Source of the DNA: a virus
Lineage: Duplodnaviria > Heunggongvirae > Uroviricota > Caudoviricetes
Length of the DNA: 7,321 bases
Strand: one strand, 5' to 3'
IMG/VR virus record: IMGVR_UViG_2645728091_000010
How positions within the stretch are numbered: the stretch's first letter is position 1; the number at the start of each line of letters is the position of its first letter. Shown piece after piece: positions 4,588 to 4,995 of the stretch. Below the pieces are notes generated by a model. That model did not search any database. It saw nothing but the letters and a program-made list of their open reading frames with translations, and was not told the origin of the DNA. The translations under genes and the position numbers were made by a program.

Positions 4588-4602
4588 TTTTAGCCCCAAA
4601 AA

Positions 4603-4622
4603 GCAATACAAGCTGCAATACA
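4603..4622. repeat. Tandem 8-bp direct repeat (gcaataca, agct spacer) just upstream of the integrase RBS
   Basis: Read directly from the sequence at 4603-4610 and 4615-4622. Confidence 0.6.
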
Positions 4623-4719
4623 GAGATGATTGCAACACACAGATAACGAGGAAAATTCAGTGAAAGCGCCAGATAAACTTATTCTTTATTATCAAAAGAT
4701 TAAGTGTAAAAACCAGCAA

Positions 4720-4995
4720 CTACACGAAAGCCTCAGAAAGCCATGCTAAGTGCTTGGGTTTGACATATCCCGGCGTAAATTCAGAGGTGGAGCCGCCACG
4801 GGAGCGGATAACCTCACCGGAAACAATCGGCGAAACGTACAGCGCCATGTTTACCAGTCCCGGAATTTGTGAGAGATAGACTTTCTCCGTAGTGAAGGGA
4901 TAGCTCTCACGGAAAAAGAGACGCAGAAACAGCGGATCAAACTTAAATTTCTGCTCATTTGCCGCCAGCAGCTGGGCGGTTGTGTACATTGACAT
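4720..4995 (-). pseudogene. E: Truncated major capsid protein E (lambda-like): N-terminal 82 codons, then 9 unrelated codons and a stop
   Basis: MSMYTTAQLLAANEQKFKFDPLFLRLFFRESYPFTTEKVYLSQIPGLVNMALYVSPIVSGEVIRSRGGSTSEFTPGYVKPKH matches the lambda gpE N-terminus. Similarity ends near 4750, where the local sequence becomes more AT-rich. Confidence 0.85.

Follow-up and report, generated by a model that had tools for sequence, protein, structure and literature searches.

An attL junction, very probably of a helper-embedded phage-inducible chromosomal island, in the lambda-type major capsid gene of a prophage

The window analyzed here, which is the whole 7,321-bp draft contig JHTG01000086.1 of assembly GCA_001266375.1, contains two blocks of genes that meet inside a major capsid gene. 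The int, alpA and primase genes of one block are co-oriented with the head genes B, C, D and E of the other (all on the minus strand). The features of the window are given below in the direction of transcription, from the head genes of the helper prophage through the junction into the satellite:

6693 to 7321, minus strand: 3' part of a portal gene (lambda B type) of the helper prophage, running off the contig end (Phage_portal_2 in the gene calls of the contig, 'phage portal protein' in relatives)
5393 to 6712, minus strand: head protease/scaffold gene C/Nu3 (lambda type, S49 peptidase, 439 aa) of the helper prophage (Peptidase_S49, intact ORF)
5051 to 5383, minus strand: head decoration gene D (lambda type, 110 aa) of the helper prophage (PF02924 HDPD; 99% DNA identity to lambdoid-phage D)
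[quoted passage not shown]
4751 to 4760, minus strand: identity block (core) of attL, AACCCAAGCA, where phage E and the satellite exchange strands (in relatives attL and attR share these 10 bp; block of Eco567.11capE in the supplement of PMC10111431)
4588 to 4750, minus strand: int-proximal arm (P' arm) of the satellite attachment site (base for base that of the founding 11capE element, by alignment)
4710 to 4681: weak sigma-70-like site inside the P' arm (promoter scan)
4603 to 4622, minus strand: doubled TGTATTGC motif, probable arm-type integrase sites by analogy, 131.5 bp from the core centre
3352 to 4587, minus strand: satellite tyrosine integrase, 411 aa, E-site subclade of helper-embedded islands (Pfam; 408/411 residues identical to the Eco567.11capE integrase)
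3117 to 3350, minus strand: AlpA, excisionase/transcriptional activator family, 77 aa (PF05930 Phage_AlpA; phrog_2790)
2132 to 3076, plus strand: variable cargo slot ('Bro zone' position), transcribed divergently
2132 to 2326, plus strand: 64-aa RHH/Arc/YlcI-YnfO-like regulator in the cargo slot
2351 to 3076, plus strand: orphan 241-aa protein in the cargo slot
1789 to 1992, minus strand: Icd-like gene at the start of the replication zone (881 to 1992)
1611 to 1796, 1420 to 1611 and 1198 to 1419, minus strand: three small conserved ORFs of the replication zone
881 to 1180, minus strand: DUF4222 gene of the replication zone
91 to 884, minus strand: N-terminal ~265 codons of the satellite primase (PF08706 D5_N), cut by an insertion sequence
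1 to 90: terminal 90 bp of ISEc13 (IS4-like) at the contig break, matching the ISEc13 ends of many genomes at 100% identity

For the capsid gene, the start codon lies at 4995 on the minus strand and the N-terminus is of the lambda E type, while codon 82 is a histidine (CAC, 4752-4750, minus strand) and the core spans codons 79-82. In a megablast search of the window from 5100 to 4400 against 50,697 phage records, query positions 1-350 aligned, and the similarity to phage E ends exactly at 4751; upstream of that point, from 5100 to 4751, the DNA is 99% identical to the D and E genes of many lambdoid phages. After His82 the frame reads LAWLSEAFV and stops at 4722-4720, with no replacement sequence for E, and both halves of E are partial pseudogenes in the RefSeq annotation of relatives. 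GC content is 0.405-0.415 across 4501-4800 versus 0.56-0.66 in C and B, and the break is separated from the int ATG by 163 bp. A sequence-only reading of this DNA had described a lambda-like series of B, C, Nu3, D and E genes, with E cut at codon 82 and continued by nine unrelated codons to a stop, followed by AT-rich DNA and, about 160 bp past the break, an integrase start at 4587 on the same strand with no tRNA-like sequence near it. This description was sound throughout: the upstream genes were identified as a partial portal gene, an S49-type C/Nu3, D and a Phage_cap_E capsid gene, the start of int agrees with RefSeq annotation in relatives, and ARAGORN found no tRNA or tmRNA in the window. 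The P4-type immunity RNAs (C4/isrK), which have been reported in some phage-inducible chromosomal islands (PICIs) (PMC10111431), were likewise absent from the window in an Rfam search at E <= 1, which returned one chance-level miRNA match only. A simple, crude scan of the coding strand from E' to int detected no terminator, and one weak promoter-like site was the only other signal there.

For the integrase, the domain set (Arm-DNA-bind_3, SAM-like and Phage_integrase) is that of the P4 type, as had been proposed from the letters, though identity to P4 Int is 25% over 280 aa. A look-up of the protein retrieved close relatives only, 98.7% identical at best. As 408 of its 411 residues are identical to those of the Eco567.11capE integrase, it belongs to the E-site subclade of helper-embedded PICIs (HE-PICIs). 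Between the break and int, the tandem repeat TGTATTGCAGCTTGTATTGC at 4603-4622 (minus strand) occurs once in the window versus 0.01 expected by chance, and a 24-nt repeat that includes the doubled TGTATTGC motif is present in direct orientation near both element ends. Counted with the two additional leading bases and the one trailing base of the published motif, its offsets from the attP centre are 131.5 bp downstream, in the window, and 81.5 bp upstream, outside the window, the latter value being obtained from 10 related loci matching a strict pattern. The published HE-PICI attP motif, tgTGTATTGCantgTGTATTGCa, stands on both sides of the attP centre, at 81 +/- 2 bp on the upstream side and at 132 +/- 2 bp on the downstream side, and such a doubled motif was not found in the other PICIs examined there (PMC10111431). 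In the annotated attP of P4 (L018), tandem pairs of arm repeats also flank the core (3942-3965 and 4151-4174) at distances near those of the HE-PICIs, with the pair on the int side placed immediately before the int ATG; the repeat sequences themselves are unrelated to those of HE-PICIs. On both arms, the N-terminal domain of the integrase most likely uses the doubled TGTATTGC motifs as arm-type sites, an assignment that the same arm geometry in P4 supports purely as an analogy. The earlier suggestion that the tandem repeats may be recombinase or regulator binding sites agrees with the published motif and with this putative parallel to P4.

For the remaining genes, the window follows the four-zone PICI layout (integration, Bro/variable, replication and late), of which it holds int, alpA, the variable slot, icd, DUF4222 and the primase N-terminus. 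The primases of relatives are 583-606 aa long with D5_N and DUF5906 domains, and the similarity of the window to them ends at position 91. The further parts of the island, namely SSB, ori iterons, E and D homologs and a variable late zone, were seen in relatives. The E and D homologs of the satellite are 41% and 37% identical to those of the helper, and the sequence equivalent to the att site in the satellite's own E is divergent, which should prevent self-targeting. A 12-nt sequence of cohesive-end type, which we take to be the lambda cohesive end, occurs once in the helper cos region and once in the satellite, and at that place the two also have a 79-bp segment in common, with 89% identity. 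Outside the window, GGTAGACAAGGTAGA-type iterons in direct and inverted orientation are clustered directly downstream of the primase gene in E. coli N1420 (L001 28197-28430), and represent the expected PICI replication origin. The late zone just before attR forms a second variable slot (L001 31385-32220, L003 31186-33858, L005 16279-18253, L007 18590-19906), whose contents differ by strain and include a small terminase, tail fragments with an abortive-infection family gene, a HEPN and DUF262/GmrSD pair, and a 438-aa AF_1680-like protein; this slot has the appearance of a hotspot for defence genes.

The far junction of the element lies beyond the contig, and therefore the insertion in the strain of the window is deduced from relatives and from its identity to them. 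The whole window is matched over at least 80% of its length by 72 complete E. coli genomes. Thirteen related loci that reach the far end were compared, four from complete genomes and nine from contigs with exactly the integrase of the window. It had been suggested from the sequence alone that one should look for the remainder of E beyond the other end of the element, for a short direct repeat at that boundary, and for intact sites in relatives, and each of these was found. The remainder of E, from codon 83 on, lies 10.4-11.4 kb beyond the integrase in 13/13 loci, and in all thirteen the 10-bp core is present at both ends, at attL and attR, of an element of 10,389-11,416 bp. When the element was removed in silico, a 341-aa E protein was obtained that is 97-100% identical to intact phage E (eight loci that reach the E stop). 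An intact site is present, for example, in phage PhiR11_1, whose E reads GTCAAACCCAAGCATGAGGTG across it, and the attL core of the window (AACCCAAGCA, 4760-4751) corresponds to that allele. For instance, in N1420 a 10,389-bp element separates the 5' fragment of E from its 3' 789 bp, after which come FI and a full lambda-type tail set. Nu1, A, W, lysis genes, Q and early genes lie upstream of the split E, and both junctions carry AGCCGAAGCA. This element comprises int, alpA, a divergent two-gene cargo, an icd-like gene, small ORFs, DUF4222 and a D5/DUF5906 primase, and, past the primase, iterons and SSB, then an additional gene each for a major capsid and a decoration protein, an HTH gene and terS. 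The gene order in N1420 thus places the element inside the capsid gene of an otherwise complete-looking prophage.

Four of the 13 loci (L003, L004, L009 and L013) have an attL core that deviates from the attR core at two positions. In L003 (22562/33978), L004 (22562/33731) and L009 (9828/20598) attL reads AGCCGAAGCA and attR AACCCAAGCA, and in L013 (9828/20598) attL reads AGCCCAAGCA and attR AACCCAAGCA. Judged by these sequences, either strand exchange would be limited to about AAGCA, with a mismatch being tolerated, or homologous recombination among prophages may later have swapped the phage flank. The published localization of the core also came from a comparison of diverse instances (PMC10111431).

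The junction was identified with a 120-bp junction probe (at least 80% covered) in 173 of 5,426 complete E. coli genomes. A 351-bp probe for the satellite arm and the int 5' end matched 175 of the same 5,426 genomes in 179 places, and a capsid-gene fragment was annotated at the int-arm match in 40/40 rows sampled across the ranking. The intact E site was covered over at least 80% in 3,104 of these genomes. In a megablast search of 50,697 phage records, the junction was absent from all deposited phage genomes. The occupied E gene is found in prophages at several chromosomal positions: in strain LR-50 beside tRNA-Arg (argU)/intD, which is the DLP12 position; in 2015C-4136CT1 between mdtABC and yegI, in a prophage decayed by IS3 insertions; and in NRG857c at icd (PMC10111431).

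Two scenarios had been proposed for the junction from the window alone: (i) an integrative element inserted in the capsid gene of a resident lambdoid prophage, and (ii) a deletion or illegitimate rearrangement that joined a decayed lambdoid prophage, cut in E, to an unrelated P4-type element without site-specific insertion. The second could be entertained from a contig that shows one junction only, ends before the far end of the element and has no tRNA beside int. However, a junction that is base-identical in 173 complete genomes and recurs in prophages at different chromosomal sites, together with the missing part of E just past the element behind the same 10-bp core, the exact restoration of E in silico and the precise excision observed experimentally for a 99%-identical element (PMC10111431), makes it extremely improbable, and the idea of two fused decayed elements is abandoned. 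The first scenario, in contrast, is borne out by the remainder of E behind the same core and by its restoration in silico in relatives.

Another question is whether the visible B, C, D and E' genes belong to a helper prophage at all, or are instead a late-gene block captured by a PICI, as an elongated late zone or as part of a nested PICI. Both PICIs with up to 17 captured helper late genes and HE-PICIs nested in PICIs are on record (PMC10111431), and only about 2.6 kb of late genes precede the contig end. Against a captured block, W, A and usually Nu1 plus lysis genes were identified upstream in 10/10 contigs with the same integrase and in the four inspected complete genomes; one of these contigs (L009) has chromosomal fimbrial genes close upstream of A, and its helper may be truncated. 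Wherever a locus extends past the element, its downstream part holds FI and tail genes, and free lambdoid phages match the late-gene DNA at 97-99% identity. The captured-block origin is accordingly regarded as very improbable, and the late genes of the window are best read as those of a lambdoid helper prophage.

Positions 4588-4760 are thus very probably the place, attL, at which a helper-embedded phage-inducible chromosomal island of the 11capE (E:Phage_cap_E:80) type joins the capsid gene. The satellite identity of the element is absent from the sequence-only reading, as is its prior publication: the site, the integrase, the motif and the whole configuration were published in 2023. The founding element, Eco567.11capE, is an 11-kb PICI in E. 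coli NRG857c that disrupts the lambda-type capsid gene of prophage 50icd, and it has a 10-bp identity block and an E homolog of its own (Tommasini, Mageeney and Williams 2023, NAR Genom Bioinform, PMC10111431). The same study reported 201 elements at site E:Phage_cap_E:80, with a further 290 spread over 13 different sites in late genes, and the attL sequences in its supplement match the junction of the window. After treatment of NRG857c with mitomycin C, the composite was found to excise precisely and to replicate, and 11capE excised at about 2 h; helper virions were undetected by the authors, and the packaging and transfer of this satellite type are hypothetical (PMC10111431).

As the att site carries no replacement sequence, E is split and inexpressible until the satellite excises. 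In the working proposed in 2023 (PMC10111431), induction of the prophage would lead to excision and replication of the entire composite, and helper late transcription, antiterminated by Q, would presumably continue through D and E' across int-alpA and the remaining satellite genes. Int and AlpA would excise the satellite late, with the dependence on AlpA being hypothetical, and E would be restored. Excision would at the same time free a cos-bearing satellite genome that may be packaged by the helper machinery, and restoration of E in this manner would be expected to delay and reduce helper head production. The truncated gene may itself have some effect: E' (residues 1-82 plus LAWLSEAFV) has E's own RBS and a late-operon position, and on induction or superinfection it could act as a dominant-negative capsid fragment, although we consider this very unlikely. 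The conservation of its ORF is trivial, as the att site is fixed and the arm is conserved. If such an activity existed, E' would bias assembly to the satellite's own E and D homologs or hamper other lambdoid phages.

For this particular copy, ISEc13 interrupts the primase at about codon 265 of 583, and the contig ends at the primase because ISEc13 is located there. The same shortened primase product is present in a second assembly, GCA_001265845.1, which indicates that the disruption is inherited. Judging from the gene content, this copy has probably lost autonomous replication, as ISEc13 cuts the primase, and is probably still able to excise, as int and alpA are intact. The ISEc13 insertion suggests that this copy may be decaying, and it is possible, though on balance doubtful, that the element in this strain is a fossil HE-PICI that has permanently inactivated the E gene of a possibly defective prophage. 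Such an end would fit the shared primase disruption, the truncated appearance of many HE-PICI helpers (PMC10111431) and the one inspected helper, that of 2015C-4136CT1, that is clearly decayed by IS3. It is less easily reconciled with int, alpA, the att arm and the doubled motif, which are intact and identical or nearly so to those of excising elements, or with the intact C, D and E' reading frames of the visible helper, and passive replication in the composite could offset the loss of the primase. In the accessible part of the supplement text of PMC10111431, neither the contig nor its assembly is mentioned, which fits the report there that many integrase matches on truncated contigs could not be mapped.

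In HE-PICIs the satellite parasitizes its helper in cis, tying head building to its own excision, a point already made in 2023 (PMC10111431). By this arrangement an HE-PICI gains free replication and probably free transcription, and the primase disrupted by ISEc13 provides a natural knock-out, usable as a test of passive replication. The present instance adds the mixed attL and attR cores of relatives, which narrow the strand-exchange region, and an unannotated cargo gene. In genome annotation, a cut capsid gene followed by an integrase in the same orientation should be taken to mark an occupied HE-PICI site and not prophage decay.

Among known systems, Eco567.11capE (L005) is the closest. It shares the target, the His82 codon of lambda-type E, with the 10-bp block AACCCAAGCA, an integrase identical at 408/411 positions (99%) and an identical 163-bp arm with the doubled TGTATTGC motif, as well as the co-orientation with the late operon, the layout of int-alpA, variable, replication and late zones, and E and D homologs of its own. 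The differences lie in the cargo between alpA and icd (RHH and an orphan 241-aa protein here versus YlcI/YnfO and a 178-aa hypothetical protein there), in the small ORFs, in the primase (583-aa type here versus 606-aa type there), and in the ISEc13 insertion in the primase of the present copy. Gram-negative PICIs such as EcCICFT073 (Fillol-Salom et al. 2018, ISME J, PMC6092414) have the same int-alpA-primase-ori backbone in 10-12 kb, are cos-packaged by a lambdoid helper and often carry a capsid-gene homolog. However, classical PICIs target chromosomal or tRNA genes and interact with their helper in trans, whereas here the target is the helper's own capsid gene and the attP motif is doubled. 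Capsid-forming PICIs (cf-PICIs) were rejected as an assignment; they have a full head module (capsid, protease, portal, connectors and small terminase), while the relatives carry only E and D homologs and sometimes terS.

For P4, the similarities include the integrase architecture (arm-binding, SAM-like and catalytic domains), an AlpA/Vis-like excisionase, a D5-type primase and tandem arm repeats. The two differ in that Int is 25% identical, the helper here is lambdoid and not P2, the target is a phage gene and not tRNA-Leu, and the repeat sequence is another one. None of the P4 gene set sid, psu, delta, epsilon and alpha was present in the inspected full-length related elements, and a P4-like satellite is ruled out by gene content and by the 25% Int identity. 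The arrangement also resembles regulated gene integrity, or 'active lysogeny', as in skin in sigK and phi10403S in comK, where a gene is split without a replacement end and is restored solely by precise excision (PMC10111431). In the present case, however, the gene that is split is part of a second mobile element, namely the helper phage, and it is the satellite and not the cell that profits from the timing of excision.
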